64,000 bases of DNA from Candidatus Spongiihabitans sp. (GTDB lineage: Bacteria > Pseudomonadota > Gammaproteobacteria > Arenicellales > Poriferihabitantaceae). The DNA lies in assembly GCA_965206355.1 (NCBI GenBank), contig OZ242212.1, forward strand, positions 1,118,814 to 1,182,813, in the 5' to 3' direction. The position numbers were made by a program, and so were the translations under genes. The notes under the pieces were generated by a model. The model saw only the letters and a program-made list of their open reading frames with translations. It was not told the origin of the DNA and did not search any database. The stretch's first letter is position 1; every line of letters begins with the position of its first letter. Below, piece after piece: positions 9,697 to 49,794 of this stretch.

Positions 9697-9769
9697 AGTA
9701 TATATCATCCTGTGGCTGATATTTCAGGTACACTTGCGGGGTTGCAACTATGAAAAACGGAGTGAATTG

Positions 9770-11047
9770 ATGGCCAATAATAACAGCGAGCAGGGTCGTT
9801 ATGTCAGTTTGCTGACACGCGATACGCTGGTGCTAATCCTTGCCGGCGGTCAGGGTTCCCGCTTGTATGAATTGACCGAATGGCGTGCTAAGCCGGCGGT
9901 GTATTTTGGTGGTAAGTTGCGCATCATTGATTTTCCGTTGTCCAACTGTATCAATTCAGGGATACGGCGGATTGGTGTGTTGACTCAGTATAAGGCGCAT
10001 TCCCTGATCCGCCATCTGGTGCATGGCTGGACTGGTTTCCAGCACGATCGGAGCAGCTTTATCGAAATTTTGCCAGCTTCACAACGTACTGGTCAGGAAT
10101 GGTATCTTGGCACTGCGGATGCAGTCTATCAGAATCTTGATATTATTCGCACGCATGATCCGGGTTATGTGCTGATACTCGCCGGTGATCATGTGTACAA
10201 GATGGATTATGGTTCTCTGCTGGCATGGCATTCGGAAAAACAGGCGGATATGACAGTATGCTGTGTCAAAGTGCCGCTGGCAGAAGCTGCCGGCACACTT
10301 GGGGTAATGACGGTTAATGAGCATGGCCGTGTCATTGCCTTTGACGAAAAGCCTGAAAACCCGCAACCCATACCCGGGCAAAACGAGCTGTGTCTGGCAT
10401 CAATGGGAAACTATGTGTTTAACACGGCTTTTCTGTTTGAGCAGGTCATCAAAGATGCCGATACCCGCCATTCTGCACATGATTTTGGTAAGAACATTAT
10501 TCCGTCCATCATTGATAGCTGTCAAATTTATGCGTTCCCGTTTCAGGATAATACCTTGCGACAACCTTACTGGCGCGATGTCGGTACACTGGATGCGTTC
10601 TGGGAGGCGAATATGGAACTCATCGGTATTGAGCCGGCACTTGACCTGTATGACAGTAACTGGCCGATTTTTTCATATCAGACACAATCACCGCCGGCAA
10701 AGTTTGTCTTTGATGAACCCAGTCGTCGTGGTGAAGCGATAGCCTCTATAGTATCAGCAGGCTGTATTATTTCCGGCGCAAGTGTCAAACGTTCCGTGTT
10801 GTTTTCAAATTGCCGTGTCCGCTCATATGCTTCCATAGAAGATGCCGTGATACTGCCAGATTGTGAAATCAATCGGCATTGCCGCATTAAGAACGCCATC
10901 ATTGATCGTGGCACGATTATTCCGCAAGCTATGGAAGTGGGTGTTGATCTTGAGGCGGATCGTGAGCGTGGATTTCGGGTGACGGCTGGTGGACGCACAC
11001 TGGTAACGCCGGATATGTTGGGGCAGACTTTGCACTATACGAGATAG
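9770..11047 (+). CDS. glgC: Glucose-1-phosphate adenylyltransferase
   Basis: [64 protein letters not shown] is the canonical GlgC N-terminus. ATG at 9770 is preferred over the TTG at 9734. Confidence 0.95.
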
Positions 11048-11055
11048 CCATTACC

Positions 11056-14803: not shown

Positions 14804-14846
14804 TTTGGGAATTACGATCGGGGTTTCAATGCCTATTGGGTATATA

Positions 14847-14985
14847 GAGACCTTTGCACGGAAGATGATTTCGCTTTCAGGCCAGGCAAAAACGCACGGA
14901 ATGAGGGAGTTTATGCTTATAAATGACCGATTGAGTACGTTTTTAACGCAGCATGCAGGTGAAAGGGCTTTCGTGCAAAGGTCTC
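14847..14985 (+). mobile_element. MITE copy, short form (139 bp)
   Basis: Perfect TIRs. TSD atata at 14842-14846 and 14986-14990. Sits between glgB and glgP. Confidence 0.95.
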
Positions 14986-15229
14986 ATATAATTTGAGGAC
15001 CTATCATTCGGACAGTGCTGTCTATTCCACGACAGCCGATTATGCGGATATTGCATGGGTGTCGTGCTTTGATTTTTTATGTTTGGCGAGAAAATAAAAT
15101 CTGGCGAATTCAACTCATAAGTGCAGTATAATATGCCCCATACACAATCCAGAGCAGTAAGCAAAACCAATTATATGGGTGTTGCTGATTCTCTGGATTT
15201 TTTTGAGTCACTTGATTAAGGAGCGCCTG

Positions 15230-36013: not shown

Positions 36014-37414
36014 ATGACTAATGAGCTTTCATCGCTAGTTGTTATATTTACCGAGTTTTATTACTGGATTACGGTGCCCCTGATGTTTCTGATTCATGTC
36101 GGCTTCTGCATGTATGAAGTCGGTGCATCGCGCTACAAGAACCACATGCACACCCTGATGAAAAATACCATGCTGATCCCTTTGGTGACCGTGACATTTT
36201 TCTTTTTCGGTTGGTGGCTTTATTTCGCACTGGTTAATGGTCCGGGTATCAATGGCGGTCTGGTAACCGCCTCCAATGCCACTCCTTGGAGTGAATTGAT
36301 GGGCGCACATCTGGGCGGGGCAGCCATACAAAATACGCTGAGCGTTGATGACACCAGTTACTGGGCGCGTATCAATGGCGTATTCTGGGCAGCCTTTTTG
36401 CTGTTTTCCTGGACTGCTGCATCAATCGTTTCCGGCTCGGTTATCGAACGTATCCGCCCCAGTGCATTCTGGATACTGGCTGTGCTGATTGGCTCGTTTA
36501 CATGGATTATTGACGCTTCATGGGGATGGTCATGGAATGGCTGGATGGTGCAGTTGCTGGGCTATCATGATGCTTATGCCTCGGGTGTTATCCACGCTGT
36601 AGCGGGTGGCTTTGCGCTGGGTATATTGGTGGTTTTAGGACCGCGAATTGGCAAATTTGCCAGTGATGGTTCGCCAAGAAATATTAACCCGCATAATCCC
36701 TGGTTGGTGACTATCGGGCTGTTCCTGATATACACCGGATTCTGGGGCTTCTATGTTGCCTGTAACATTCCTATCATTGATGTTTATGGCGGGGCGATGC
36801 TGGATGTTGCTGATAAAAGCTATTTCAGTGCCACCAATATCTATCTGCAACCGACCACGCTGTCTGCCATTACTTTTAACTTCCTGATGTCATTGTCAGG
36901 TGGATTGATGGCTGCTTATATGGTTTCCAAAGGTGATGCGTTCTGGACTTATTCCGGCGGATTGGCGGGCGTAATCGCCGCCTCAGCGGGGAACGATCTG
37001 TACCACCCGATTCAGGCGATGCTGATTGCGGCTGTTGTCGTGGTCATTATCTACAAGATGCACCATTGGGTTGAGCGTGTATTCAAAATTGATGATGCGG
37101 TTGGTGCTGTTGCGGTGCATGGTTATGCCGGTTTTCTGGGCGTGGTTATTGCAGGCTTTATGCTCTGGGGCTATCCATCATCTCCCTTTGAAGGGTATGC
37201 GGTAATTACCCCGTGGGGACAATTCGCCGGTGCAATAATTATGTTCTTTGTTCTGGGATTTATTCCAGCTTGGGTTGCGTCTAAAATTTTAAGCGCTATG
37301 GGTTTGCTTCGTATTCCGCGTGAACTCGAATTGGTTGGTCTGGATATGAGTTCCGAAGCGCAACGGCAGGTAGATGCACAGGCTGTTAGAGAAACCATTC
37401 GCAACGAAGCCTGA
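36014..37414 (+). CDS. amt: Ammonium (possibly methylammonium) transporter, Amt family
   Basis: 466 aa and polytopic. Amt/MEP-type segments include AVHGYAGFLGVVIAG and the conserved His-containing helices. Substrate preference cannot be read from the sequence. Confidence 0.88.
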   Translation: MTNELSSLVVIFTEFYYWITVPLMFLIHVGFCMYEVGASRYKNHMHTLMKNTMLIPLVTVTFFFFGWWLYFALVNGPGINGGLVTASNATPWSELMGAHLGGAAIQNTLSVDDTSYWARINGVFWAAFLLFSWTAASIVSGSVIERIRPSAFWILAVLIGSFTWIIDASWGWSWNGWMVQLLGYHDAYASGVIHAVAGGFALGILVVLGPRIGKFASDGSPRNINPHNPWLVTIGLFLIYTGFWGFYVACNIPIIDVYGGAMLDVADKSYFSATNIYLQPTTLSAITFNFLMSLSGGLMAAYMVSKGDAFWTYSGGLAGVIAASAGNDLYHPIQAMLIAAVVVVIIYKMHHWVERVFKIDDAVGAVAVHGYAGFLGVVIAGFMLWGYPSSPFEGYAVITPWGQFAGAIIMFFVLGFIPAWVASKILSAMGLLRIPRELELVGLDMSSEAQRQVDAQAVRETIRNEA

Positions 37415-37589
37415 GCTTGATTTAGAATTATTGACTTTTTATACAAGGGTGTCTCTGCTCATTAACGATGTTTTTGTGAGCGTAAGAAAGTCCCGTGCGC
37501 ATCAAGATAGCCAGCGCGGGACTGACGGCGCAATCGCGAAACAAGATAATTAACAGCGATACCCATAAACCTTAACACTGGAGATTATT

Positions 37590-37838
37590 ATGGCAACAGG
37601 TATGGTGAACAACTGGATCAATGTCGATACACTGGGTCCTATTTATCCTTTCGTAGGCTCTGAAAGTACATTAGTGCTGATTGGTTTGGCTTTCTGGCTA
37701 CTTTGGCATGTTTGGCAAATAAAGTCGGAATCGACCGAGTTCAAAATGGATATTGAGAAAATCGAACGGCACGGTGGTGTCGCTAAAGTGCTGGATAATG
37801 AAGGCGAGCGCGAGATTAGTGATTTGGCGGGCAGGTGA
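37590..37838 (+). CDS. Small membrane protein, unknown function
   Basis: 82 aa. SD ggag lies 8 nt before the ATG. One hydrophobic helix (STLVLIGLAFWLLWHVW). No family recognised. Confidence 0.5.
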   Translation: MATGMVNNWINVDTLGPIYPFVGSESTLVLIGLAFWLLWHVWQIKSESTEFKMDIEKIERHGGVAKVLDNEGEREISDLAGR

Positions 37839-37863
37839 TTATTTTTAATTTTTGTGACTAACT

Positions 37864-38025
37864 GAGACTTTTGCACGGAAGATGATTTCGCTTTCAGGCA
37901 AGGCAAAAACGCACGGAATGAGGGAGTTTATGCTTATAAATGACCGATTGAGTACGATTTTACCAACAGTAGGCGCTTTTAGGCGACGCAGCATGCAGGT
38001 GAAATGGCTTTCGTGCAAAGCTCTC
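37864..38025 (+). mobile_element. MITE copy, long form (162 bp)
   Basis: TSD taact at 37859-37863 and 38026-38030. One mismatch in each TIR. Inserted between the upstream stop codon and its terminator hairpin. Confidence 0.93.
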
Positions 38026-38039
38026 TAACTTTATTTGTG

Positions 38040-38070
38040 CCCCTTCACGGCCCGCCGTGAAGGGGCTTTT
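38040..38070 (+). terminator. Rho-independent terminator (now separated from its gene by a MITE)
   Basis: ccccttcacgg-cccg-ccgtgaagggg stem (11 bp) followed by ctttt. Confidence 0.75.
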
Positions 38071-38117
38071 CTATGTTCCGGACAGATGTGTTCGCTACGC
38101 AGGTTGAATGAACGGTT

Positions 38118-38615
38118 TTGATTCGCGGGATATTAAATTCCATTCCCGCCCGACCGGTACTGTACATCGCACCACTGGTGATGGTGTCGGTGTTGGTGTT
38201 TTATTATTGGGATCTGAAAAATCAGTGTACTGATCAGGTTAGTCAGCGCGAGTATTTCAGGCAGCACGTTCAGCAAGCAGCTGATACGGGCAGTCTGTTA
38301 CGGTTGGCGGATATAACCTCATTTGCTTGGCAACAGGTCAAAGGCTTTAGGGCTTTTAGACCGCAACAGCAAAGTAGAAGCTGTCCTTTTAAGTGGGATT
38401 GGTCAAGTCAGGAACGTCAGAACATTATTGATGCCGGTCAGTTATCGGTGATCATATTTATCCACGAAGGTTCGATTGCAAATTACATCGAGTTTCAAAG
38501 CGATCGAATTAAAATAGATGATTTCGGAAAAATCTTAACCCCGGAAACCGCCTTGTTCAGGGTGCAACGTGTGCCGGATGTTGTTCAGGCATACCAGCTT
38601 TCTTTGCTACCTTGA
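38118..38615 (+). CDS. Hypothetical membrane-anchored protein
   Basis: 165-aa ORF with a TTG start and an N-terminal hydrophobic helix (VLYIAPLVMVSVLVFYYW). No family recognised. Confidence 0.45.
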   Translation: MIRGILNSIPARPVLYIAPLVMVSVLVFYYWDLKNQCTDQVSQREYFRQHVQQAADTGSLLRLADITSFAWQQVKGFRAFRPQQQSRSCPFKWDWSSQERQNIIDAGQLSVIIFIHEGSIANYIEFQSDRIKIDDFGKILTPETALFRVQRVPDVVQAYQLSLLP

Positions 38616-38718
38616 TGGTCAGCAAGAGTTGCGAGTCTCGGGCTACTTTTTATGGAATGGGCAGAATATAACGCTGTCAGGCGAATGCACAGTGCCTCTG
38701 CACGGTTTGTGTATTCAA

Positions 38719-39399
38719 TCAAGTTCCGCCTAAATCCCGTTTTGCCTGATTTAGGTGTTGAATCATTAATGTTGATGCGCCTTCCATATCTCGCCGGATT
38801 ATGGTTTTTAGCAGTGCGTGATGTTGTTGGTTGTATTGGGCGATCTTTCCCGAGGTTAATATACCGAGCTTGCGGTGGCTCCACTGAGTATGGTTGCGAA
38901 TATCATTGATGCGCTGATATATCCAGATCAGTAAAGGGTTCTGAGAGTAGTTTGCTAGCATCAAATGGAACGCTTCGTCTGCGGATGAAAAAGAATTGGC
39001 ATCTTGTTGTGCATTTACCGTATCCTCTAACATCTCTTGCAACTTTCTCAGTTCACGGTTGTTGGCGTTTGCGACAACTAACCTGACAATATGGGGTTCT
39101 ATTGCCAGACGAGTTTCAATCAAATCCAGCGGGCTGGTTTCTTCGGATATATCTTCCTGATCGAATTTGATGTCGTAATTTACAAAGGTGCCACTACCAA
39201 ATTTTTTCCTGACAAAATTTGCGCGTTCCAGTTGATTGAGGGCGGATCTTACCGTGCCTCGCGCTACCGAATGCTGATCTGCCAGACTGCGCTCGGAAGG
39301 TAAGCGTTCGTTGTAGGTGTAGTCGCCATTGATGATGGCTGCACGGATATGATTGAATAATCCGGTAGCACCTGTTGTAACTTTTAAGTGATCTTGCAT
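38719..39399 (-). CDS. GntR-family transcriptional regulator (FadR subfamily, FCD domain)
   Basis: 226 aa. The N-terminal wHTH is LPSERSLADQHSVARGTVRSALNQLE, followed by an all-helical C-terminal domain. Confidence 0.88.
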   Translation of the reverse strand: MQDHLKVTTGATGLFNHIRAAIINGDYTYNERLPSERSLADQHSVARGTVRSALNQLERANFVRKKFGSGTFVNYDIKFDQEDISEETSPLDLIETRLAIEPHIVRLVVANANNRELRKLQEMLEDTVNAQQDANSFSSADEAFHLMLANYSQNPLLIWIYQRINDIRNHTQWSHRKLGILTSGKIAQYNQQHHALLKTIIRRDMEGASTLMIQHLNQAKRDLGGT

Positions 39400-39441
39400 A
39401 GTCGTTGGTAGTAAGTTGCTTATGGGCTGATGGCCTTATAA

Positions 39442-39594
39442 ATGGTTTATAAATGGTATATACAATAATAGCAATTAATAACAATATAGGTATTGTAAAT
39501 CGTACAGAGTTAGTGGTTAAATAGCACTGGTTGCAAATTACCTTAAAATGGTATAAATTACATTCCATAATTAAATGTACTAAAACTATACCAT
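39442..39594. promoter_or_regulatory. Cluster of ATGGTWTAT boxes, candidate GntR operators in the divergent promoter region
   Basis: atggtttat (39442-39450), atggtatat (39453-39461), atggtataa (39548-39556) and the inverted tataccat (39587-39594). FadR-type GntR operators are GT...AC dyads. The assignment is inference only. Confidence 0.3.
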
Positions 39595-39648
39595 AATTTA
39601 ACAATCATAAGCAACATTATATTAACAATCACAAAATAGAAATAAACC

Positions 39649-40989
39649 ATGGCATTTCCTCAGCACAGTAACTATCTTATTATTGGCGCCGGCATCCACG
39701 GATTGAGTACGGCATATCATTTAGCGTTAGAACTCAAAGCGAAAGGAAAAGGTGATGGAGGCGATATATTAGTCGTCGATAAAGCCTCTATTGGCGCGGG
39801 TGCTTCAGGCATCGCTTGTGGCGTTGTCAGAAATAACTATTTCCAACCGGCGATGCGCGAACTTATGGCACAATGTGTTGAGGTATGGGAAAGCGATACG
39901 ACGGCTTATAGTTATCACCCGGTCGGCTATATGCAGATAAGTCCTGATTCGATGTCTGAAGATGTCGCTTCCATCGCCGAACAACAAAAAGAAATCGGCT
40001 ACGAATCTGTTTTCATCGAAGGCGAGCAGGCCTCCACCAATTATATGAAGGGTTTGTTCCATGATTGGCAAGCGCAAGGCATCACTTCGGTATTGCACGA
40101 GAAGAAAGGTGGCTTTGCCAATAACACAAAATCGTTGTATGGACTCGCCAGTAAAGTTGAAGCACAGGGCGTGCGGATATTAACTGGTGTACAGGTTACT
40201 GGTTTTGAAAGTGATGATGCCAGTAGTGCGATTAAAGCGGTAATAACCGATAAAGGAAATATCTCTTGCGATCAATTGGTGGTTGCGCCGGGACCTTGGG
40301 CAAAAACGATTTGGGATATGCTGGAACTGCCCAAGTCAGTGGATATTAAATCCGACGGCGAGATACATAAAGATGTGCCGATGTGGGTTTACTGGTCATT
40401 GCAGGAAGGTACTTTGGGGGTTGATCCGGAGATACAAAAAACCAATGATGGCAAAGCGCCACCGGTTATTCATGTTGATTCTAATGCCCCCTTATATTCT
40501 GATGAGGATGGTTCCCTGATTACTGATGAACTATGGGGTATTTATTATAAACCCGATTTTCATTTCAAGGGTATACAAGGCGGTGCGGCACCATTTAAGG
40601 TGGAAACCGATCCGGATCAGGTTGCCGTGGACCCTTATGGCGTGGATTCACCCGATTTTATCGTTGGTGATGAATTTTCACACATGTGGGTGTCGGCGTT
40701 AGCACATTGTCAGAAACGTTTTCAGGGACAAATTGATAAATACAATAGTGAACCGTCTGGTGGAATAGGCTCGTTTACGCCAGACAGTTTTCCGGTTTTC
40801 GATAGCTTCAGAGACAACTGTTATTTCATTGCCGATTCCAATCATGGCTACAAGATGCTTGGGGTTGGCAAGCTGGTTGCCGAAGAACTGGTCGGTTCCA
40901 AAAGCAAACTATTGGAACCTTTTCGCTTTTCGCGTTATATTGAAGGCAGGTTACACCCGGTATCCAACAGCCCGTTTCCCTGGAGCTAG
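39649..40989 (+). CDS. FAD-dependent oxidoreductase (DAO family, sarcosine-oxidase-beta / N-methylglutamate-dehydrogenase-like)
   Basis: 446 aa. The N-terminal dinucleotide fold is YLIIGAGIHGLSTAYHLA with ...VVDKASIGAGASGIACGVVR. The first gene of the plus-strand cluster. Confidence 0.8.
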   Translation: MAFPQHSNYLIIGAGIHGLSTAYHLALELKAKGKGDGGDILVVDKASIGAGASGIACGVVRNNYFQPAMRELMAQCVEVWESDTTAYSYHPVGYMQISPDSMSEDVASIAEQQKEIGYESVFIEGEQASTNYMKGLFHDWQAQGITSVLHEKKGGFANNTKSLYGLASKVEAQGVRILTGVQVTGFESDDASSAIKAVITDKGNISCDQLVVAPGPWAKTIWDMLELPKSVDIKSDGEIHKDVPMWVYWSLQEGTLGVDPEIQKTNDGKAPPVIHVDSNAPLYSDEDGSLITDELWGIYYKPDFHFKGIQGGAAPFKVETDPDQVAVDPYGVDSPDFIVGDEFSHMWVSALAHCQKRFQGQIDKYNSEPSGGIGSFTPDSFPVFDSFRDNCYFIADSNHGYKMLGVGKLVAEELVGSKSKLLEPFRFSRYIEGRLHPVSNSPFPWS

Positions 40990-41119
40990 TCTGTTTTTTG
41001 GGTTATCAGGTCAACTTAATTATAAAGGGCATATATTAACCAGATCGGAAAAAAATGGTTAATAGAAATGCCTGGGATTTTAACCACTAACTAAAACGAT
41101 ATTATTATTGGAGATAGCA

Positions 41120-42655
41120 ATGGCTAAAAAGAAAGTAGCAAAAAAGACAACAACGACAAAACGATCCACCAGCAAAGTGCAAACGTCAACTGATTTAGAG
41201 CGGCGGGTCAATGCCCCGGGTCGAGCGCAACTGATTAGGCAGGTACGGGCGAAAATTAAAGAAACGGGTGTTACCTATGTTTACTTCCAGTTTGTTTCTG
41301 TTACCGGTCGAATTGTTGGAAAGGGTATTCCTGCCGACCATTGGGAACGGGTTGCAGAAAAAGGTTTCCAACTGGTTTATGGTTCTACTGCAAACCTGTT
41401 TATTGATCGGCATGGTGACTATATTGGTTATGGTCCGGAAGCCTCAGAACTGGTCGGCATTCCAGATCCTGAAACCTTTGTGCAACTGCCTTGGGATAAA
41501 CGTATCGCGCGCGTATTTTGTACCTGTTATCGTAACCGTGAAGAGCGTGTTAATCCGGGCGCGCACCTGACCTCCGACTGTCGTGGCAATCTGGAGATTA
41601 TCCACAAGGATTTTGAGAAAAAACACAAAATGCACATGCGGGTTGGTACCGAACCGGAAATGATGTGGCTCAAACTGGATGAGAATAAACAGTTGCAAGG
41701 GGGGGTGACTAAACCGAACTGCTATCACATCGATCAATTTGAAGAGCTACGTCCAGCGTTTATGCAGGTCATTGAATATGGTGAAAAAATGGGATTCGAT
41801 ATGATTCAGGGCGATCACGAAGATGCGCCCGGTCAGCTTGAACTGAACTGGATGTACGATGATGTGCTGAGAAATGCTGATCGACTGACCACCTATCGCC
41901 AAATTTGTGCGCAGGTTGCTCGGGAAAAAGGTTTGCATGCCTGTTTTATGTCTAAGCCTTTTATGAATGTTTCTGCATCGGGTTGTCACCATAATGTGTC
42001 GTTGTGGTCGGGTGGCAAAGATGTGGTGAATAAACTGCATCAAAAATCTATTGCCGCTATGGATGATGTGTTTTCCTATCGTGAAGGCGGTACTAACCAT
42101 TTTATGCCGGATCCGAAAATTGATGCGGTCAAACCCAATCCGATTGGTCTCAAATCAATCGGCGGTGTTATCGAACATCTTGGCGCATTGACATCCATTG
42201 GCTCATCCACGGTTAATTCCTATCGCCGTTTATGGGATACCGGCTTCTGGGCACCCGTTTTTGCCGACTGGGGATTTCAAAACAGAACCTGTGCGTTGCG
42301 CGTTTCCGCACCCGGTCGTTTTGAATATCGTTCGGTAGATTCTATGGTCAACCCGTATCTGATGGGTGGCGCATTACTCAAGGTATTCGACGATGGTATA
42401 TCCCGTAATCTTGATCCGGGTGAGCCTGAAGAGCGCAATATCTATGCGGCTATGGAAGCTGGCAAGCAGGTGAAAAAATTGCCGATGACGCTGGGAGATG
42501 CCTTAAAAGAACTGGAAAAAGATGATGTGGTGCGCACGTCGATGCCCGGCGAAATGTACACCGTGTATCACCACTATAAAAATGATGAATGGGAGCGATT
42601 TAATCATTCCGTTTCTGATTGGGACCTGGAAAATTATCTTGATTGCTTGCCTTAA
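41120..42655 (+). CDS. Glutamine synthetase family protein (gamma-glutamylmethylamide-synthetase-like)
   Basis: ATG at 41120. A Lys/Thr-rich leader of about 35 aa (MAKKKVAKKTTTTKRSTSKVQ) precedes a GS beta-grasp (YVYFQFVSVTGRIVGKGIP) and a catalytic domain (GTEPEMMWL, QGDHEDAPGQLELNW, SKPF...SGCHHNVSLW). Context with GltB-fragment genes suggests a GmaS-type role. Confidence 0.75.
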   Translation: MAKKKVAKKTTTTKRSTSKVQTSTDLERRVNAPGRAQLIRQVRAKIKETGVTYVYFQFVSVTGRIVGKGIPADHWERVAEKGFQLVYGSTANLFIDRHGDYIGYGPEASELVGIPDPETFVQLPWDKRIARVFCTCYRNREERVNPGAHLTSDCRGNLEIIHKDFEKKHKMHMRVGTEPEMMWLKLDENKQLQGGVTKPNCYHIDQFEELRPAFMQVIEYGEKMGFDMIQGDHEDAPGQLELNWMYDDVLRNADRLTTYRQICAQVAREKGLHACFMSKPFMNVSASGCHHNVSLWSGGKDVVNKLHQKSIAAMDDVFSYREGGTNHFMPDPKIDAVKPNPIGLKSIGGVIEHLGALTSIGSSTVNSYRRLWDTGFWAPVFADWGFQNRTCALRVSAPGRFEYRSVDSMVNPYLMGGALLKVFDDGISRNLDPGEPEERNIYAAMEAGKQVKKLPMTLGDALKELEKDDVVRTSMPGEMYTVYHHYKNDEWERFNHSVSDWDLENYLDCLP

Positions 42656-42785
42656 GACTGGTGGCAACTCGAGTGAGTTACCTGAAAAATTAACCTGAAC
42701 GGCAAAATCTCGGGGCGCTAACCCCCGAGGCGTTCAGTTTTAATCCTATTTTTTAATTAACCTTAATATACGGAGAACTTGCAAA

Positions 42786-43721
42786 ATGTGTGGTATCGCA
42801 GGACTTATACATCGGGGGAAAAGTTCCGACGTAGGGGCGGAGATGACATCGATGCTTCAATCTTTGAAGCATCGGGGACCGGATTCTACCGGTTTCGCGC
42901 TCTACGGGAAACCGACTAACAATCAGCATGTAATACGCTTCAATGTTGCCGAGCAGGAAGACATGAACAAGGGTTTTGACATACATCGACATGTGGTTGA
43001 ACGTCAAAAAGTGGTTGACGAACGACTGGAGAAACTGGGGGTGAAGGTAATATCTCGTGACCGACCGACCGAATACTCTAGTCGTTATACGTTTTCATTT
43101 GATGGTGACATGAAAAAACTCGCCGATTATCTTGAGGACATTGAAGGCGTGGAAATTCTGTCCATTGGTGAGGGTCTGGAATTGATTAAAGACCTTGGCG
43201 ACGCAACGGTGGTATCTGATCAATATGGTTTAGCAGATTTCACAGGCACTCACGGCATCGGTCATACGCGTATGGCGACCGAATCTGATGTGGATATTCG
43301 CTCTGCTCACCCTTACTGGGCTTATCCGTTTAACGACGTTTCGGTCGTACATAATGGCCAGCTTACCAACTACTGGGGTTTTCGTCGCCAGATGGAACGC
43401 CGTGGTCATCGTTTTATGTCGAATTGTGATTCGGAATTAATAGCCGTTTATATCGCCGACCGCATGGCCGAAGGTGATGATCTTGAAGAAGCCATGCTCC
43501 GATCTGTCGATGAACTGGATGGTGTTTTTACCTATCTGGTCGCAACCAGCGACAAACTGGGAATGGCAAAAGATGTTATGGCGGCTAAGCCGATGGTGTT
43601 ATATGAAAGCGATGAATTCGTTGGCTTGGCTTCCGAGGAAGTCGCTATCCGCAGCATATTTCCGAATGAAATTGAAACTTGGGATCCATATCACGGGGAG
43701 GTAAGAGTATGGCAGGCGTAG
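42786..43721 (+). CDS. Class II glutamine amidotransferase (GltB N-terminal-domain-like; MgsA/GlxB-like)
   Basis: 311 aa. It starts MCGIAGLI with the Ntn catalytic Cys2, and has GIGHTRMATESDV and VVHNGQLTNY. Confidence 0.85.
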   Translation: MCGIAGLIHRGKSSDVGAEMTSMLQSLKHRGPDSTGFALYGKPTNNQHVIRFNVAEQEDMNKGFDIHRHVVERQKVVDERLEKLGVKVISRDRPTEYSSRYTFSFDGDMKKLADYLEDIEGVEILSIGEGLELIKDLGDATVVSDQYGLADFTGTHGIGHTRMATESDVDIRSAHPYWAYPFNDVSVVHNGQLTNYWGFRRQMERRGHRFMSNCDSELIAVYIADRMAEGDDLEEAMLRSVDELDGVFTYLVATSDKLGMAKDVMAAKPMVLYESDEFVGLASEEVAIRSIFPNEIETWDPYHGEVRVWQA

Positions 43722-44548
43722 AACACAAATCCCATGACATGGGTCTGCATGCCGAGCAGTTAACCGGCAGAACGCAGCAGCGTTTTTTTAATGCCAGCGA
43801 GGAAGAGAATTTTACCTATCCTTGGGCGCATGAGGTTGATTTCAATAAAACCGCAGAATTTGATGCTGAACACATGGACAGCTCGGCGATTAACCTGAAA
43901 ATTCGGGAACTGATGCAATCAGGGCACGGTACCGTTACCGTCAAAAACCCACGCGCCAAACATGGTGTCGGGGTCGGTATTCTTAATCGTTTGAACCTGA
44001 AATTTGAAGGGAGTCTGGGCTATTTCGGCTGTGGCTTAGTGGATGGACCGAACATTCATATCAGCGGTCGGGTCGGCTGGTCGTGTGCAGAGAACATGAT
44101 GTCCGGCAAGGTGGTCATTGACAAGAATGCCGGTTCAACATTCGGTGCGGCGATTCGCGGTGGTGATTTGGTTTGTCGTGGCGATGTTGGTTCTCGAACC
44201 GGTATTGACCAAAAGGGCGGCACTATCATCGTTGGCGGTCGTACCGGCGCGTTCTCCGGATTTATGATGCAACGTGGGCGCATGATTATTTGTGGTGATG
44301 CGGGCAAGAATCTGGGTGATTCCATGTATGACGGCACCATCTATGTGGGTGGTGAAGTCGAGGATTTAGGTGTCGATTGCGTGCCCAGTGAACTCAATGA
44401 GGTTGATCTGAAATGGCTGAACACCAAGCTGGGAACGTATGGCATTAAACCCGCTTGTGGCATCGAAAACCTGAAGAAATTTGTCGCGGGTAAGCAGTTG
44501 TGGAACTATGATAACCTGGAACCCACCGAGAAAAAATTGATACTCTAA
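43709..44548 (+). CDS. GXGXG-motif protein (GltB C-terminal-domain-like; MgsB/GlxC-like)
   Basis: ATG at 43709 overlaps the upstream stop by 13 nt. Repeated beta-helix Gly motifs (GSLGYFGCG, GRVGWSCAENMMSG, GDVGSRTGIDQKGG, GDAGKNLGDSMYDG). Confidence 0.85.
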   Translation: MAGVEHKSHDMGLHAEQLTGRTQQRFFNASEEENFTYPWAHEVDFNKTAEFDAEHMDSSAINLKIRELMQSGHGTVTVKNPRAKHGVGVGILNRLNLKFEGSLGYFGCGLVDGPNIHISGRVGWSCAENMMSGKVVIDKNAGSTFGAAIRGGDLVCRGDVGSRTGIDQKGGTIIVGGRTGAFSGFMMQRGRMIICGDAGKNLGDSMYDGTIYVGGEVEDLGVDCVPSELNEVDLKWLNTKLGTYGIKPACGIENLKKFVAGKQLWNYDNLEPTEKKLIL

Positions 44549-45922
44549 ATGAGTATTCCAAGAACAAGAGGAAAAACAATTATGTCAAAAACAACAAGAG
44601 ATACCAGTCACCTGGGACAAAGTTTTATGTTCCCGCCGGAGGTGATGGATGATATTCATATCAAAGCGGAATTGGGACGTTACCGTATGCGTGGCTTCTC
44701 ATTATTCAAAAAAATCCCGACCTGGGATGATCTGACTTTTATGCCCGGCACCCTGACCCGTTTTGTTATTGAAGGGTATCGGGAAAAATGTTTAACCGAA
44801 ACGGTCATTGGCCCAAAAGCAAAACGCCCGATGGTATTGGATATTCCGGTTTACATAACCGGTATGAGTTTTGGGGCATTATCTTATGAGGCTAAAACGG
44901 CATTGGCGCGGGGTGCCACCATGGCAGGCACAGCGACCTGTTCGGGTGAAGGCGGTATGATTCCCGATGAACGCCGCTACTCCGAAAAGTGGATGTATCA
45001 ATGTATTCAATCCCGCTACGGCTTCAATCCGAATCATTTACGCCTTGCCGATTGCGTGGAATTTTTTATCGGTCAGGGCTGTAAGGTCGGGTTGGGTGGA
45101 CACTTGATGGGACAAAAAGTAACCGATCAGGTTGCTGAAATGCGTTCCTTGCCGGCCGGAATTGATCAGCGTTCTCCGGCGCGTCACCCGGACTGGTTAG
45201 GGCCTGATGATCTGGCTTTGAAAATCAACGAAATTCGTGAAGCGACCAACGGCGAAATTCCGATTCAGTTGAAGCTGGGCGCGGCGCGAGTTTATGATGA
45301 TGTGCGGATGGCAGCGAAAACCGGTCCCGACTCCATCTATATTGATGGCATGGAAGGCGGTACTGGTGCCGGTCCGCACCTGGCGACCGAAGAAACCGGT
45401 GTGCCGGGTATTGCCGCAATCCGACAAGCACGTAGAGCGATTGAAGATGTCGGTAAATCTGGGGAAATATCTCTGGTTTATGCCGGTGGTATCCGTAATG
45501 GTGGTGATCTGGCTAAAGCCTTGGCACTGGGCGCGGATGCGGTCGCTATTGGGCACTCGGCATTGATGGCATTGAACTGCAACAAAGACATTCCGGAAGC
45601 GGATTTCGAGAAAGAAATGGGGGTTGAGGCTGGTCATTGTTATCATTGCCATACTGGTCGCTGTCCAGTGGGGGTGGCCACGCAGGATCCGACTTTACGC
45701 AAACGTCTGAATCCTGATGCAGCAGCAGAAAGGGTCTATAACTTTCTACACACGCTGACCATTGAAGCACAACTTTTGGCGCGGGCTTGTGGCAAGACCA
45801 ATATCCATTCTCTTGAGCCGGAAGATTTATCCGCATTAACGATGGAGGCTTCTGCATTGGCACAAGTTCCTCTGGCAGGTACCCAGCATACCGTTGGGCG
45901 ACCTGATTTGACTCGATTCTAG
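44549..45922 (+). CDS. FMN-binding glutamate-synthase-family protein (GltB central-domain-like; MgsC/GlxD-like)
   Basis: GMSFGALS, KVGLGGHL, IYIDGMEGGTGAGP and YAGGIRNGGDLAKALALGADAV are glutamate synthase FMN-domain motifs. The start is either the ATG at 44549, directly after the upstream stop, or the ATG at 44582, which has SD agagga. Confidence 0.88.
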   Translation: MSIPRTRGKTIMSKTTRDTSHLGQSFMFPPEVMDDIHIKAELGRYRMRGFSLFKKIPTWDDLTFMPGTLTRFVIEGYREKCLTETVIGPKAKRPMVLDIPVYITGMSFGALSYEAKTALARGATMAGTATCSGEGGMIPDERRYSEKWMYQCIQSRYGFNPNHLRLADCVEFFIGQGCKVGLGGHLMGQKVTDQVAEMRSLPAGIDQRSPARHPDWLGPDDLALKINEIREATNGEIPIQLKLGAARVYDDVRMAAKTGPDSIYIDGMEGGTGAGPHLATEETGVPGIAAIRQARRAIEDVGKSGEISLVYAGGIRNGGDLAKALALGADAVAIGHSALMALNCNKDIPEADFEKEMGVEAGHCYHCHTGRCPVGVATQDPTLRKRLNPDAAAERVYNFLHTLTIEAQLLARACGKTNIHSLEPEDLSALTMEASALAQVPLAGTQHTVGRPDLTRF

Positions 45923-45933
45923 GAGGTAGAAAA

Positions 45934-46329
45934 ATGAGTGAAAACACCAATGCAAACGTCGATAAATTTATCGAATCAGATGGCCTGGACAGCGGTCGGG
46001 AAAAAGATATCGGTCAGCACATCGGTTATCGTTATGATGTGAATTTAGTGCCGGATATGGATCGCTGCCCTGAATTTCTTAAAAAATATATGGAAATGAT
46101 GGGCTGGGATGATTTGAACTGGCTTGAAGATGTCCACATGGGTTATGAAGAAGGCCGACCGGCTGTATTTGACCGCAACATCAATGGTTGGGTACAGGTT
46201 CCCGAAGACCTGAAACTGCCGGATAACCAACAGGATCGGGATATGATTGCGCGGGAATTGCTGATCAAATTCCAGATGTCAAAAACCCATCCGATGGTTG
46301 ATTTGATGAATGCCTATAAGAAGTTTTAG
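45934..46329 (+). CDS. Hypothetical acidic protein, last gene of the cluster
   Basis: 131 aa. A strong SD (taggaggtagaaaaATG) lies 11 nt after the mgsC-like stop. No family recognised. Confidence 0.6.
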   Translation: MSENTNANVDKFIESDGLDSGREKDIGQHIGYRYDVNLVPDMDRCPEFLKKYMEMMGWDDLNWLEDVHMGYEEGRPAVFDRNINGWVQVPEDLKLPDNQQDRDMIARELLIKFQMSKTHPMVDLMNAYKKF

Positions 46330-46419
46330 TGTCTGCCTTCCTCTTCATGGGGTGGTGCTCATTTAATTCAAGAGATAACTTTATGAAGAGTGTAATGAAT
46401 CTTCTGAAAGCAGCACTAT

Positions 46420-46558
46420 GAGACCTTTGCACGGAAGATGATTTCGCTTTCAGGCCAGGCAAAAACGCACGGAATGAGGGAGTTTATGCTTATAAATGAC
46501 CGATTGAGTACGATTTTAACGCAGCATGTAGGTGAAATGGCTTTCGTGCAAAGGCCTC
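46420..46558 (+). mobile_element. MITE copy, short form (139 bp)
   Basis: TSD actat at 46415-46419 and 46559-46563. The right TIR has one mismatch (aaggcctc). Confidence 0.93.
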
Positions 46559-46779
46559 ACTATATGAGTGCTGTTGTCCAAAACACATAGAAGCGATAAG
46601 TGAGTCAAGTATATTTGAAAATGCACTGTATTGGAGATCTCACCGTTTTTGCTAAAAAGATCCTGCTGCTAACGAAAATTTGGATATAGTCAGTGCTTTA
46701 AGCATATCGTATGCGGCTGTCTTGCATTGATAGATTAGCTCATGCGATAATTTCTGAAGACTCGGATTGATCTTCTAAA

Positions 46780-46974
46780 GATGCTGAGTTATATGCGCAC
46801 ATCATTTCACAACGAGGTAAATTGAAATCTGGTGCAGAAATACACTTCGGGGCTAGAATAAGTCGCAGATTCGTTCTTGATCACGGCTACGGAACGGTTA
46901 TTGGTGATACCGCCGTGATTGGAAATGATTGTTATGTACTTGGAGGTGTCATTCTCGGCGCAAAGGTCTCATAA
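46780..46974 (+). pseudogene. cysE: Serine O-acetyltransferase-like hexapeptide-repeat fragment (about 64 codons, no start)
   Basis: The open frame reads ...SGAEIHFGARISRRFVLDHGYGTVIGDTAVIGNDCYVLGGVILGAKVS*. It matches the CysE core ([44 protein letters not shown]). Both the N-terminal domain and the C-terminus are missing. The last 11 nt (gcaaaggtctc) equal a MITE right terminus. Confidence 0.55.
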
Positions 46975-46982
46975 TATAATTT

Positions 46983-47700
46983 GGGGCTGTCCTAGATAAC
47001 ACTGAAAGAGTGCTATCATGGGATCAATGAGAAAGAGTCGTTTAAGCCGTTATAAACAAGGTCGTCTTATTGAGCATTTTGTGTCGGGTTCAACCGCCCG
47101 CACGGCAGCATTGCTGGTTGGGATCAACAAGTCCACATCGGCGTATTTTTATCACCAGTTGCGCGAGATTATCGCATATGAGCTTGAACAAGAAAGCCAT
47201 GAGGTTTTTGACGGGGAGATTGAAGTCGATGAAAGTTATTTTGGCGGTGGTCGCAAAGGCAAACGAGGTCGGGGAGCGGCGGGGAAAATCCCGGTGTTTG
47301 GCTTACTCAAACGGGGCGGGAAGGTTTACGCCAAGATTATCCCGGATGCTTGTTCAGCAACCTTGATGCCAATTATTGAGCGTAAAGTGGTTCCGGACAG
47401 CATCGTTTATTCCGACTGTTGGAGCGGTTATAATGTGCTGGACGTGAGCGATTTCAAGCACCACCGCATCAACCATTCCCAACGCTTCGCGGAGCAGGGG
47501 AATCACATCAACGGCATTGAGAACTTTTGGAGTCAGGCGAAGCGTCATATGCACAAATTCAACGGTGTTCCCAAGGCGCATTTTGGGCTGTTTTTGAAGG
47601 AGTGCGAGTGGCGTTTTAACAACAGCGACCCAATATCTCAATTATTTCAATTAAAACAATGGGTTGGAGTTCATTTAAACTAGTTATCTAGGACAGCCCC
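46983..47700 (+). mobile_element. IS1595-family insertion sequence (ISXO2-like), apparently intact
   Basis: 718 bp. Perfect 18-bp TIRs ggggctgtcctagataac / gttatctaggacagcccc. 8-bp TSD tataattt at 46975-46982 and 47701-47708. A single transposase ORF. Confidence 0.92.
47018..47683 (+). CDS. IS1595-family transposase (DDE, ISXO2-like)
   Basis: 221 aa. GEIEVDESYFGG..KGKRGRGAAGKIPVFGLLKRGGKVYAKII, YSDCWSGYNVL and INGIENFWSQAKRHM are typical ISXO2-like transposase segments. Confidence 0.9.
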   Translation: MGSMRKSRLSRYKQGRLIEHFVSGSTARTAALLVGINKSTSAYFYHQLREIIAYELEQESHEVFDGEIEVDESYFGGGRKGKRGRGAAGKIPVFGLLKRGGKVYAKIIPDACSATLMPIIERKVVPDSIVYSDCWSGYNVLDVSDFKHHRINHSQRFAEQGNHINGIENFWSQAKRHMHKFNGVPKAHFGLFLKECEWRFNNSDPISQLFQLKQWVGVHLN

Positions 47701-47715
47701 TATAATTTTTCGCTC

Positions 47716-49794
47716 ATGATAGAACGTGGTTGCCCCGCCCCGCTGGGGGCGTGCTGGGATGGTGAGGGGGTGAATTTTGCGTTGTATTCATCGCTTGCCG
47801 AGCGGGTTGAGTTGTGTCTGTTTGATAAAGCGGGGCTTGAGACAGCACGCTTCGTTTTACCCGCTCAGGATGATGATATCTGGCACGGTTACTTGCCGGA
47901 CTGCAAACCGGGTCAGTGTTATGGTTATCGCGTCCACGGACAATATACGCCGACACAAGGTCTTCGCTGCAACGCCAACAAGTTGCTGATTGATCCTTAT
48001 GCACGTGCTTTGAAGGGGGGGATGTCCTGGTCACCCGCTGTGTTTGATTTTGACCCGAACAGTCCTGCCGAGGAGATGCAGACCAGTACTCTGGACAGCG
48101 CATCTTGTGTGCCGAAATGCGTGGTAACTGCCACACAAAATGACCAGTCGCTTTCACGACCGCGCATTCCCTGGTCAAAAACCATTATTTATGAGACCAA
48201 CGTACGTGGTTTCACTATGCGCCACCCGGCAGTTTCAGAATCTGATCGGGGAAAATTCCGCGCTATGTGTCATGCCGAGATACTGGACTATCTCAAAGCA
48301 TTGGGCATTACCACCATTGAGCTGATGCCGGTGCATGCTTTTATTGACGAGGGTTGTCTGGTGAAACGGCAACTGCGGAATTTCTGGGGCTACAACAGTA
48401 TCAATTTTTTCACCCCCGAAGCGCGTTATGCGGATGGCAACGCTATTTACGAATTCCGAGAAATGATCAATGCCATTCACGATGCTGGCATTGAAGTGAT
48501 TCTTGACGTGGTTTACAACCACACCGCTGAAAGCGACCAGCATGGTCCGACACTGAGTTTTCGGGGCATTGACAATCTCACTTATTACCAAACACGGCCG
48601 CATAATCCGGGGCATTACCTCAACCACAGCGGTTGCGGGAATACCCTGAATGTTGAGCATCCGCGCGTTCAAGAGCTGATACTTGACAGTCTCAGGTATT
48701 GGCATCAGCAAATGGGGGTGGATGGCTTCCGTTTCGACCTCGCACCAGTGCTGGGCAGAAACAACGCGTGTTTTGACTCCGACCATCCCTTGCTCAAGAG
48801 CATCAGCAACGATGACCTTCTCAAGGGCATCAAGTTAATTGCCGAACCCTGGGACCTTGCTGCAGACGGCTATCAACTGGGGCAGTTCCCGCGCGCATGG
48901 GCAGAATGGAATGATCGCTATCGGGACAGTGTGCGGCGCTTCTGGCGTGGTGATTTCGGGGAAAGCGGCGAGCTTGCCAGACGTTTGCACGGCTCCGCCG
49001 ACCTGTTTGAAGCGGGTGGACGTAGCGCAAACGCCAGCATCAACTTGATTACTAGCCATGATGGCTTCAGCCTGACCGATGTGGTGAGCTATGAATCCAG
49101 ACACAATCTGGACAATGGCGAGGACAACCGTGATGGTCATACACTTAATCTCAGTCGCAACTACGGAATTGAGGGCGAAACCAGCAACCACACCATCAAC
49201 CAGCTACGTCGCCGACAACGATTGAATATGCTCGCCACCTTACTGCTATCACAAGGCACACCGATGTTACTGGCAGGTGATGAATTTGGCAACTCACAAC
49301 GTGGCAATAACAATGCTTACGCACAAGATAACGAGATTGGTTGGCTCGACTGGAGCGGGCTGCTAACCGATGCCGATTTTCAAACACAGGTACGCAAACT
49401 GATTGCGCTACGACTCGACACCACTTTACTAAGACAGCAACAGTACCTGCACAGTCAGTCATCAGATGTAAAAGGACAGTCGGTCATAAGCTGGCTCACA
49501 GCGGATAGCAAGCAAATGATGCCAGCGGATTGGCAACAGACACAAACCCTAACCGTCATCATCAGCCATCTCAACAACCACAAAACCCCGCCAGATCAAA
49601 CCCAATCCATCGCCATTATGCTGAACGCATCCGCATCAACAACCCATTTCACGCTACCCCAAGCATCACCGCACAATACCTGGTTGCTGGCATTCAGTAG
49701 CAGCGACACACCCGCAAACCCACTCGGTAACCATATCTGGCAACTCCAGAATTCATCCATTACCTGTCTGCGTCAGTGTCGTCAATGCCGGTAA
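47716..49794 (+). CDS. glgX: Glycogen debranching enzyme
   Basis: 692 aa. N-terminal PLGACWDGEGVNFALYS, and GH13 motifs (DVVYNHT, GFRFDLA, AEPWD, ITSHDGF). Confidence 0.93.
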   Translation: MIERGCPAPLGACWDGEGVNFALYSSLAERVELCLFDKAGLETARFVLPAQDDDIWHGYLPDCKPGQCYGYRVHGQYTPTQGLRCNANKLLIDPYARALKGGMSWSPAVFDFDPNSPAEEMQTSTLDSASCVPKCVVTATQNDQSLSRPRIPWSKTIIYETNVRGFTMRHPAVSESDRGKFRAMCHAEILDYLKALGITTIELMPVHAFIDEGCLVKRQLRNFWGYNSINFFTPEARYADGNAIYEFREMINAIHDAGIEVILDVVYNHTAESDQHGPTLSFRGIDNLTYYQTRPHNPGHYLNHSGCGNTLNVEHPRVQELILDSLRYWHQQMGVDGFRFDLAPVLGRNNACFDSDHPLLKSISNDDLLKGIKLIAEPWDLAADGYQLGQFPRAWAEWNDRYRDSVRRFWRGDFGESGELARRLHGSADLFEAGGRSANASINLITSHDGFSLTDVVSYESRHNLDNGEDNRDGHTLNLSRNYGIEGETSNHTINQLRRRQRLNMLATLLLSQGTPMLLAGDEFGNSQRGNNNAYAQDNEIGWLDWSGLLTDADFQTQVRKLIALRLDTTLLRQQQYLHSQSSDVKGQSVISWLTADSKQMMPADWQQTQTLTVIISHLNNHKTPPDQTQSIAIMLNASASTTHFTLPQASPHNTWLLAFSSSDTPANPLGNHIWQLQNSSITCLRQCRQCR

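Follow-up and report, generated by a model that had tools for sequence, protein, structure and literature searches.

A widespread gene module, very probably for methylated amines and paralogous to the N-methylglutamate route, in Candidatus Spongiihabitans, with dimethylamine as its tentative substrate

Candidatus Spongiihabitans sp. (assembly GCA_965206355.1) belongs to the gammaproteobacterial order Arenicellales. Its genome is 2.39 Mb (G+C 47%, 99% complete), and its nearest relatives are Arenicellales metagenome-assembled genomes (MAGs). We analyzed a stretch of 64,000 nucleotides of contig OZ242212.1 (positions 1,118,814 to 1,182,813), here called the window, and focused on a group of genes at window positions 36014-46329 that resembles the genes of the N-methylglutamate (NMG) pathway. 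We found that a ligase, three synthase subunits, a 131-amino acid (aa) protein and a flavoprotein encoded there make up a module that recurs across phyla. This is very probably a widespread and so far uncharacterized module of methylated-amine metabolism, paralogous to the NMG route.

The gene calls rest on a list of open reading frames and on Pfam and NCBIfam scans of the window proteins. The first gene of the operon (39649-40989, plus strand) encodes a 446-aa FAD oxidoreductase of the DAO family (PF01266). It is followed on the same strand by the gene for GS-long (41120-42655; PF00120, 253 bits), a predicted gamma-glutamyl-amine ligase of the glutamine synthetase (GS) superfamily; a start at the ATG at 41120, giving 511 aa, is likelier than one at the TTG at 41108. 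Three plus-strand genes then encode the parts of a split glutamate synthase-like enzyme: an Ntn (class II) amidotransferase subunit similar to MgsA (42786-43721; PF13522 and PF13537, N-terminus MCGI), a GXGXG subunit similar to MgsB/GlxC (43709-44548; PF01493, with ~50 aa extra at its N-terminus) and an FMN subunit similar to MgsC/GlxD (44549-45922; PF01645, 300 bits). The fifth core gene, orf131 (45934-46329, plus strand), encodes the 131-aa protein. Packing is tight: the ATG of the GXGXG gene at 43709 gives a 13-nt overlap with the amidotransferase gene, the FMN gene follows with a 0-nt spacer, and orf131 starts 11 nt past the FMN-gene stop. A gene for a GntR/FCD regulator of the FadR subfamily (38719-39399, minus strand) is divergent from the operon. 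Upstream of it is a gene for an Amt-family transporter (36014-37414, plus strand; PF00909), whose end is 2.2 kb from the DAO start. A first-pass annotation of this DNA had described these genes (Amt, GntR, DAO, GS-like, three synthase subunits and the 131-aa frame), their packing, the divergent FadR-type regulator and the distance to the Amt gene; all were found at the same coordinates, and the regulator has both GntR and FCD domains.

The arrangement of the core genes goes far beyond a chance neighborhood. We compared 80 related loci, 53 of which had enough downstream DNA (L and G numbers below denote the loci and genomes compared). The order ligase-amidotransferase-GXGXG-FMN-orf131 was kept in 43 of the 53, across phyla, at protein identities of 60-96%. 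Among the ten exceptions, one is interrupted by insertions, two have the ligase before a canonical mgdABCD-mgsABC-gmaS cluster, and seven, mostly cyanobacterial, have the ligase alone. Copies of the module are 82-96% identical in the FMN subunit and 67-84% in orf131. Relatives of the ligase at 70-90% identity number in the thousands in metagenomes. In genome records the ligase occurs in Gamma- and Alphaproteobacteria, SUP05/Thioglobus, the sponge-symbiont Poriferihabitaceae, Acidimicrobiia, Flavobacteriales, Vulcanimicrobiota and cyanobacteria; many or most of the genomes compared are MAGs. The ligase tree has short branches and is discordant with the species tree, which indicates horizontal spread under strong constraint. 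The module was present in ~6% of the gammaproteobacterial and 8% of the alphaproteobacterial species sampled.

GS-long is predicted to be a gamma-glutamyl-amine ligase that is neither GmaS nor a glutamine synthetase. It scored 299.5 bits against TIGR03105 (GmaS/GlnT), below the cut-off of 469.6, and 240 bits against TIGR00653 (GlnA), below the cut-off of 429. It is about equidistant from the solved GSI-alpha enzymes and from GmaS. In a maximum-likelihood tree of the GS family it formed a clade of its own (support 100/99), apart from GmaS/GlnT (11 rows) and from GlnA. The phylogeny that the first-pass annotation had called for separates the protein from GmaS, to which that annotation had likened it. 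The sister group consists of "glutamine synthetase family" proteins of Paracoccus sp. TOH and Ruegeria sp. SCSIO 43209, and the next branch is from Rhodococcus opacus 1CP. These sister and outgroup ligases sit in amine-catabolic clusters with genes for P450, aldehyde dehydrogenase and gamma-glutamyl hydrolase. A further, unannotated relative (39% identical) is encoded on plasmid pGKT2 of Gordonia sp. KTR9 (L100, 5001-6188), upstream of FAD oxidoreductase and P450 genes.

We read the active-site residues of GS-long by alignment against the crystal-structure paper on GmaS (PMC7948447). The Glu of the Glu-flap is replaced by Trp in 18/18 sequences, as in GmaS, and Asp50' is replaced by Val or Tyr. 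Residues of GmaS that are kept are Tyr147, Gln175, Asp177, Glu179, Glu186, Asn188, Lys30' and Arg312. Because the flap Glu is Trp, Asp50' is lost and the catalytic residues of GmaS are retained, we favor an amine ligase over a glutamine synthetase. The first-pass annotation had suggested inspecting the ammonium-binding residues that GmaS lacks, and their loss was borne out. GS-long also has an insert of ~28 aa after the HxN metal motif and a second one in the N-domain. A Lys/Thr-rich basic leader of ~23 residues (window 41120-41190) was seen only in the nearest relatives, in forms of 511-513 aa (L001, L003, L004, L006); most members of the family begin ~24 residues later and have 488-491 aa.

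The host has the usual enzymes of ammonia assimilation in addition. A true GlnA is encoded at C1:1987937-1989385, and a full-length GltB is present. We also observed genes for a 362-aa eukaryote-like GSII-type enzyme and a 451-aa divergent GS-like protein (C1:16906-17994 and C1:1540206-1541561).

We found that the three synthase subunits are related to MgsABC and distinct from it. As reference for MgsABC and GmaS we used a plasmid of Ruegeria conchae that carries dmmDABC-amt-mgsABC-gmaS. Identity to its MgsA, MgsB and MgsC is 35% for the amidotransferase, 39% for the GXGXG and 52% for the FMN subunit, and the FMN subunit is 53% identical to a beta-type MgsC. For calibration, the Ruegeria genes and the canonical set of an uncultured gammaproteobacterium (L047) share 52-81% identity. 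In a tree of FMN subunits, the canonical MgsC proteins (marine and beta/acidithiobacillial) formed one clade (100/99), and the module copies formed a separate clade beside it. The order of the subunit genes is that of canonical mgsA-B-C. These identities and the sister-clade position speak against orthology of the trio to canonical MgsABC.

The FMN subunits of the module contain an invariant C-x2-C-x4-C motif, CYHCHTGRC, at the position of the 3Fe-4S cysteines of GltB. These cysteines are missing from marine MgsC proteins (Ruegeria, Arenicellales and Thioglobus; L089:8619-9947, L090, L092 and L094). The motif is kept in MgsC of Aquabacterium and Acidithiobacillus caldus (L097 and L098) and in all FMN subunits of the module. 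As judged from these motifs, canonical NMG synthases may come both with and without an Fe-S cluster. Separately, a third split glutamate synthase-like trio adjoins the module on the opposite strand in two loci (L026:4-2744 and L061:739-3536). It is 39-44% identical to the module and distinct from MgsABC, and a helix-turn-helix (HTH)-cupin regulator is present in L026.

The protein encoded by orf131 is probably a fourth synthase subunit and a new small protein. It has 59 invariant columns among 33 sequences. Searches of Pfam and NCBIfam up to E=1 gave nothing, and the PDB held no sequence match. An AlphaFold model was of moderate confidence (pLDDT 69), and a Foldseek search of the PDB with it gave nothing under E=0.38. 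An orf131 profile run against 1.84 billion representatives recovered 305 clusters, nearly all short and none an informative fusion. We considered that orf131 might be a detached piece of the central domain of GltB and rejected this idea (hhalign against the host GltB, probability 0.3%). No orf131 was found anywhere on the Ruegeria conchae plasmid with the canonical mgsABC-gmaS cluster, and none was detected in five other examined stretches in which canonical mgs operons lie apart from the module.

The flavoprotein also belongs to the module. Orthologues of the DAO protein (at least 59% identity) were present in 29 of 37 genomes with orf131 and in 0 of 10 without it. These 10 include all 5 genomes positive for both Tdm and Dmm, and the ligase-only genomes. 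The DAO gene is directly upstream of the ligase gene in 29 of the 73 loci used for its position, and in SUP05 genomes the orthologue lies ~11 kb downstream on the same contig. PF01266 covers only the N-terminal half of the protein (residues 9-225). The closest proteins of known structure are only remotely similar: a Pyrococcus "sarcosine oxidase" subunit (53 bits), as well as sarcosine and dimethylglycine oxidases. The flavoprotein belongs, as an outlying member, with the sarcosine, dimethylglycine and proline dehydrogenases and is 24% identical to a soxB-type subunit. No four-subunit enzyme of the MgdABCD type, with its GcvT-domain alpha subunit, was found in the window, which has only the one 446-aa DAO gene. 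The host genome has two soxBDA(G)-type loci at other sites, and in several of the loci compared the module is flanked by both the DAO gene and soxBDA-type genes.

The module does not take the place of gmaS-mgsABC. True GmaS, scoring 520-680 bits and thus above the TIGR03105 cut-off, was found in 26 of 31 genomes or records with GS-long. The two nearest relatives examined have a canonical mgsABC-gmaS operon elsewhere on the chromosome. No gmaS-mgsABC was found in the host genome, which either lost these genes or never had them. The arrangement in L047, with GS-long before mgdABCD-mgsABC, had suggested that GS-long replaces GmaS. This was rejected: a true gmaS lies just past the end of that locus, and also occurs in the 26 carriers. 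In a Thioglobus genome (G015), a GS-like gene on a long branch (L092:8725-10047; 472 aa, 30% identical to GmaS) is found directly before a canonical mgsABC-gmaS operon.

These results bear out the first-pass annotation in part. It had recognized the hallmark of the gmaS-mgsABC route. Methylated-amine metabolism, the gmaS-mgsABC-like build and the lost ammonium site stand; the identification with the gmaS-mgsABC system itself does not. It had also proposed that a canonical cluster elsewhere would make this a paralogous system for another substrate. Such a cluster was found in the two nearest relatives and not in this genome. Because the nearest relatives hold the canonical operon elsewhere, the module family is, by that measure, a paralogous system.

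We found that the module is linked to genes for trimethylamine (TMA) and trimethylamine N-oxide (TMAO) metabolism. TMAO demethylase (Tdm; NF053776, 1118 bits, cut-off 1100) and a TmoX-type ABC transporter are encoded after orf131 in SUP05-type loci and some others. Elsewhere orf131 precedes soxB-soxD-soxA-type genes, or true gmaS/mgsABC is only a few kb distant. Module and true GmaS share one island in L024, L055 and G467. The last is an alphaproteobacterial genome of 1.41 Mb in which a single 35-kb island holds gmaS, the module with its DAO gene, mgsABC, soxBA, tdm and tmoX. A 192-aa gene, pdxJ and tdm come after orf131 in the loci of the nearest relatives (L001 and L002), where tdm is 1.5 kb downstream.

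In the host, the 192-aa gene, pdxJ and tdm are at C1:732-740 kb (C1:732042-740396), ~430 kb away, next to tmm and a tmoXWV-like transporter. The host genome thus carries tmm (825 bits), tdm (1158 bits) and tmoXWV-like genes. Collinearity with L001 and L002 ends at window position 46316, just past orf131. The synteny break (46330-47715) contains a cysE-like fragment, the end of a miniature inverted-repeat transposable element (MITE) and an IS1595 element (transposase gene 47018-47683). It looks as if a rearrangement mediated by mobile elements split the island at this IS/MITE-marked break. The conserved ~192-aa protein (host C1:739818-740396) travels directly after orf131 or, as in the host, beside pdxJ and tmoV. 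It was seen in L001-L005, L010, L026, G044, G239, G325, G395 and G140, had no family match, and may be a further accessory of the pathway.

The linkage to tdm bears on the fate of dimethylamine, the product of Tdm. Lidbury et al. 2017 (PMC5520151) reported that dmmDABC, the genes for dimethylamine monooxygenase, are lacking in SAR11 and in abundant marine Gamma- and Deltaproteobacteria, although these carry tmm, tdm and gmaS. The way in which marine bacteria without Dmm deal with dimethylamine was left open there, and the published view is of a "metabolic bottleneck". Neither DmmA (NF041259; 0/30) nor DmmC (PF11927; 0/30) was found in 30 carrier genomes, the host included; the DmmC of the Ruegeria plasmid, used as a control, was found.

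We searched two unbiased samples, 400 Gammaproteobacteria and 201 Alphaproteobacteria, for orf131, Tdm and DmmC (PF11927). In the Gammaproteobacteria, orf131 was present in 24 genomes and Tdm in 21. Fifteen of these 21 Tdm-positive genomes had only the module, five had only DmmC, and one (58% complete) had neither. DmmC was on the tdm contig in 4 of the 5. A PF11927 protein does occur in G140, one of the 15, but it shares only 26% identity with DmmC, has no dmmA, dmmB or dmmD near it and is not a DmmC orthologue. In the Alphaproteobacteria, orf131 was present in 17 genomes and Tdm in 12; ten of the 12 had only the module and two only DmmC. None of the 201 alphaproteobacterial genomes combined orf131 with a strong DmmC match. 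Among the combined 33 Tdm-positive genomes, 25 had only the module, 7 had only Dmm and 0 had both. With G140 conservatively counted as having both, Fisher's exact test on the combined table gave p = 1.4e-5, and a family-level table of the Gammaproteobacteria gave p = 0.013; both values ignore kinship. Among tdm-positive genomes, the module thus occurs nearly exactly where Dmm is missing.

Based on these results we tentatively suggest dimethylamine, the Tdm product, as the substrate, a suggestion drawn from gene content and distribution. The window would hold one complete copy of a "second module" of methylated-amine catabolism, with a dedicated Amt, its two small partner genes and a repressor of the FadR type. 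It would form a gamma-glutamyl, NMG synthase-like route for which dimethylamine is the likeliest substrate, and we put this fuller statement forward just as tentatively. GS-long would attach the amine to the gamma-carboxyl group of glutamate, using ATP. The Ntn amidotransferase subunit would free the amine inside the synthase. The FMN/Fe-S subunit, together with the GXGXG subunit and orf131, would fix it onto 2-oxoglutarate to give an N-alkylated glutamate, from which the DAO flavoprotein would take off a methyl group oxidatively. With dimethylamine, the intermediates would be N5,N5-dimethylglutamine, N,N-dimethylglutamate and N-methylglutamate, and the last would enter the ordinary pathway at N-methylglutamate dehydrogenase. 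The module would fill the role of dimethylamine monooxygenase in bacteria without Dmm. It is possible, and more doubtful than the choice of substrate, that this amounts to a previously undescribed dimethylamine pathway that is ATP-dependent and monooxygenase-independent and uses a four-subunit synthase containing orf131. We found no description of the module, or of a gamma-glutamyl dimethylamine route, in the literature.

Dimethylamine as substrate would explain why, among the Tdm-bearing genomes sampled, all but the one that is 58% complete have Dmm or the module. It would explain the coexistence with genes for monomethylamine. It would also explain why the module has an oxidase of its own beside Mgd-type enzymes, because two demethylations would be required; since two successive demethylations would need the DAO protein plus soxBDA-type enzymes, we count the co-carriage of these genes in its favor. 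Since no free methylamine would arise on the way, the host could dispense with gmaS-mgsABC.

Several points weigh against dimethylamine. The module is known here from its genes and their distribution, and the substrate is one that we infer from distribution only. We know of no established precedent for a secondary amine as the substrate of an Ntn amidotransferase. For a GS-type ligase there is none beyond a weak side activity of GmaS (PMC7948447). Four of the sampled Gammaproteobacteria (G044, G239, G325 and G395), all without Tdm, combine the full module with genuine dmmDABC, mgsABC-gmaS and mgd. These four rule out strict mutual exclusion of the module and Dmm, which we had considered, and the complementary pattern could be partly an effect of lineage and lifestyle. 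No DAO orthologue was found in 8 of the 37 module genomes. GS-long also occurs without the synthase, orf131 or DAO: before mgdABCD-mgsABC-gmaS in G018 and G430, and after tmm-tdm in cyanobacteria. The cyanobacterial ligases (L068:3078-9494, L077 and L078) are 70-72% identical to GS-long. In L068 the ligase gene comes directly after the genes SBP-tdm-(173 aa)-tmm, and in L077 it lies between tmm/MOSC/desaturase-like genes and a copper amine oxidase gene. Finally, all seven residues of the amine pocket are identical in GS-long and GmaS, so that monomethylamine would fit equally well.

The main alternative is a second route for monomethylamine, a form of the NMG pathway that would scavenge nitrogen with high affinity or under different regulation. 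We consider this rather unlikely. GS-long would be an isofunctional GmaS, the trio with orf131 an isofunctional NMG synthase, and the DAO protein a single-subunit N-methylglutamate oxidase; in the host genome the module would be the sole NMG-type route. Two methylamine routes in one genome are common in methylotrophs. The seven pocket residues and the catalytic residues, the architecture like that of gmaS-mgsABC, the Amt of the type found in methylamine clusters, the lack of another gmaS or mgs in the host genome and the four genomes with the module plus a complete dmm-gmaS-mgs-mgd set all agree with it. However, the same pocket residues are also present in ligases from clusters for larger amines, so they are not specific for methylamine, and we dropped them as a means of discriminating between monomethylamine and dimethylamine. 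A true GmaS is already present in 26 of the 31 carriers, and the two nearest relatives have the mgsABC-gmaS operon; in L024, L055 and G467 the true GmaS lies in the module's own island. A second monomethylamine route also leaves unexplained why each of the sampled Tdm-positive genomes of adequate completeness has exactly one of the module and Dmm, and why the module has its own flavoprotein beside Mgd-type genes.

The substrate might instead be another small amine, such as ethanolamine, ethylamine, an N-methylated ethanolamine or a hydroxylamine made by Tmm, with a linkage to tdm that is merely ecological. This appears improbable. The nearest outgroups of GS-long do lie in P450/aldehyde dehydrogenase/gamma-glutamyl hydrolase clusters typical of alkylamine catabolism, the module occurs without Tdm in 9 of 24 Gammaproteobacteria and 7 of 17 Alphaproteobacteria, and cyanobacterial GS-long genes are found with tmm, MOSC, desaturase-like and copper amine oxidase genes. 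Yet the linkage to tdm, tmoX, mgs, gmaS and sox/mgd-type genes is tight and repeated across phyla. An NMG synthase-like enzyme with a flavoprotein of the sarcosine oxidase type points to N-methyl chemistry, and the module has no aldehyde dehydrogenase or gamma-glutamyl hydrolase.

An alternative GS-glutamate synthase (GS-GOGAT) system for ammonia, fed by Amt, with an archaeal-like split synthase and the DAO protein as electron-input partner, is very improbable: the domain content (GS plus three GltB domains), the three-cysteine motif of GltB in the FMN subunit, the adjacent Amt and a sequence conservation as high as in central metabolism would fit, but the loss of Asp50' and the catalytic flap Glu already largely refutes it, the host has a normal GlnA, the GSII-type enzyme and a full-length GltB, and a patchy, horizontally spread distribution with linkage to tdm is unlike a housekeeping role.

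One of the closest characterized systems is the NMG pathway (GmaS, MgsABC and MgdABCD) of Methyloversatilis universalis, Methylocella silvestris and Ruegeria pomeroyi, whose genes are annotated as glnT-glxBCD-soxBDAG in SAR11. Shared features are a GS-superfamily ligase without the ammonium site, the Ntn-GXGXG-FMN gene order, an adjacent Amt of the same subtype, the position in TMA/TMAO islands and, as expected for the module, oxidative demethylation by a flavoprotein of the DAO/sarcosine oxidase family. In contrast to the NMG pathway, the module has a ligase of another clade that scores below the cut-off, and a synthase that is 35-52% identical and in a sister clade. Its invariant 131-aa protein has no counterpart in the true mgs operons examined. 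One 446-aa flavoprotein takes the place of a four-subunit dehydrogenase with a folate-binding domain, the regulators are FCD-GntR or HTH-cupin proteins rather than the AraC-type TmaR, and the module usually coexists with the canonical genes.

DmmDABC (Ruegeria pomeroyi, Methylocella and Paracoccus aminophilus) occupies the same place in the island as the module, between tdm and the methylamine genes, and its distribution is complementary among tdm-positive genomes. The likeness would be one of function by analogy and not of membership; the two are unrelated in sequence. Dmm is a haem/flavin/Fe-S monooxygenase that depends on O2 and NADPH and frees methylamine, whereas the module would be ATP-dependent and keep the nitrogen on glutamate.

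Gamma-glutamylation pathways (PuuA-D for putrescine, IpuC-type for isopropylamine and GlnA4 for ethanolamine in Streptomyces) have the same ATP-dependent first step by a GS-like enzyme, and PuuB, like the flavoprotein of the module, is of the DAO family. In those pathways the alkyl chain is oxidized by P450 and aldehyde dehydrogenase and a gamma-glutamyl hydrolase acts last, whereas the module has a glutamate synthase-like enzyme and no hydrolase. GS-GOGAT (GlnA and GltBD) and the archaeal split glutamate synthase share the domain families and a C-x-C-x-C motif in the FMN domain. Unlike them, the module has lost the ammonium site, lacks GltD, has an accessory distribution and is linked to methylated amines. 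Sarcosine, dimethylglycine and N-methyltryptophan oxidases share the N-terminal FAD domain with the flavoprotein, from which N-demethylation of an N-methyl amino acid would be expected. It differs from them in scoring at most 53 bits against any solved structure, in having a divergent and longer substrate domain, and in having no GcvT domain as fusion or partner.

A sizeable share of the dissolved organic nitrogen in the sea consists of methylated amines, which are also precursors of marine aerosols. If dimethylamine is the substrate, the "dimethylamine bottleneck" would be closed for SAR11-type bacteria, SUP05, Arenicellales and other marine bacteria without Dmm. Gene-based estimates of marine dimethylamine turnover would change, and a new enzyme complex with a new subunit would be defined. 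The module would also be the host's only way to recover nitrogen from TMA and TMAO, as the host has tmm, tdm and tmoXWV and no gmaS-mgsABC. The host is a natural test case, with the module and the TMA/TMAO genes kept and the canonical gmaS-mgsABC missing. Even if the substrate is monomethylamine, surveys with gmaS/mgs markers miss or mislabel a large and distinct gene family.

The Amt protein scored 182.6 bits against PF00909 (threshold 23.2) and 179 bits against TIGR00836. The latter score is below the cut-off of 343 bits, so the protein is a divergent subtype. It is 69% identical to the Amt encoded between dmmDABC and mgsABC-gmaS on the Ruegeria conchae plasmid, and copies of it (68-87% identity) adjoin the module in 17 of the 80 loci. 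Its partner gene encodes an 82-aa small membrane protein (37590-37838, plus strand) that is 35% identical to the product of the 71-aa gene after Amt in the Ruegeria cluster. The pair of Amt and small membrane gene is also found in L024, L026, L042, L043 and L061. A terminator-like hairpin, a pattern match only, follows the pair (38039-38066, plus strand; 12-bp stem with 9 G-C pairs, then a T run). The next gene (38118-38615, plus strand) encodes a 165-aa protein with an N-terminal hydrophobic segment and no Pfam or NCBIfam match. Homologues of it (30-60% identity) are also found after Amt in L001, L002, L024, L043, L050 and L057. The 82-aa and 165-aa genes belong to the gene set of the module.

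The regulator matched PF00392 (58 bits, residues 15-73) and PF07729 (90 bits, residues 92-217), and a divergent GntR/FCD homologue is in the same place in 47 of the 80 loci. The divergent promoter region (39400-39648) contains TGGT(A/T)TA / TATACCA boxes near 39443, 39454, 39549 and 39587, among them a dyad spaced by ~30 nt shortly before the DAO gene. Of the 47 loci, 22, from distant taxa, have this 7-mer in the equivalent spacer. We regard the boxes as a candidate operator for the FCD-GntR regulator.

Rfam and tRNA scans of the window gave no matches, and promoter and terminator scans gave counts that were not above those of shuffled sequence. The 130-nt gap between the ligase and amidotransferase genes contains a G+C-rich hairpin (42708-42730, 8-bp stem; a pattern match only) that may be an internal attenuator or processing site. 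Glycogen genes lie on both sides of the module: glgC, glgA, glgB and glgP at 9734-17770, and glgX at 47716-49794, directly after IS1595. They are parted by ~30 kb of unrelated genes, among them the amine module.

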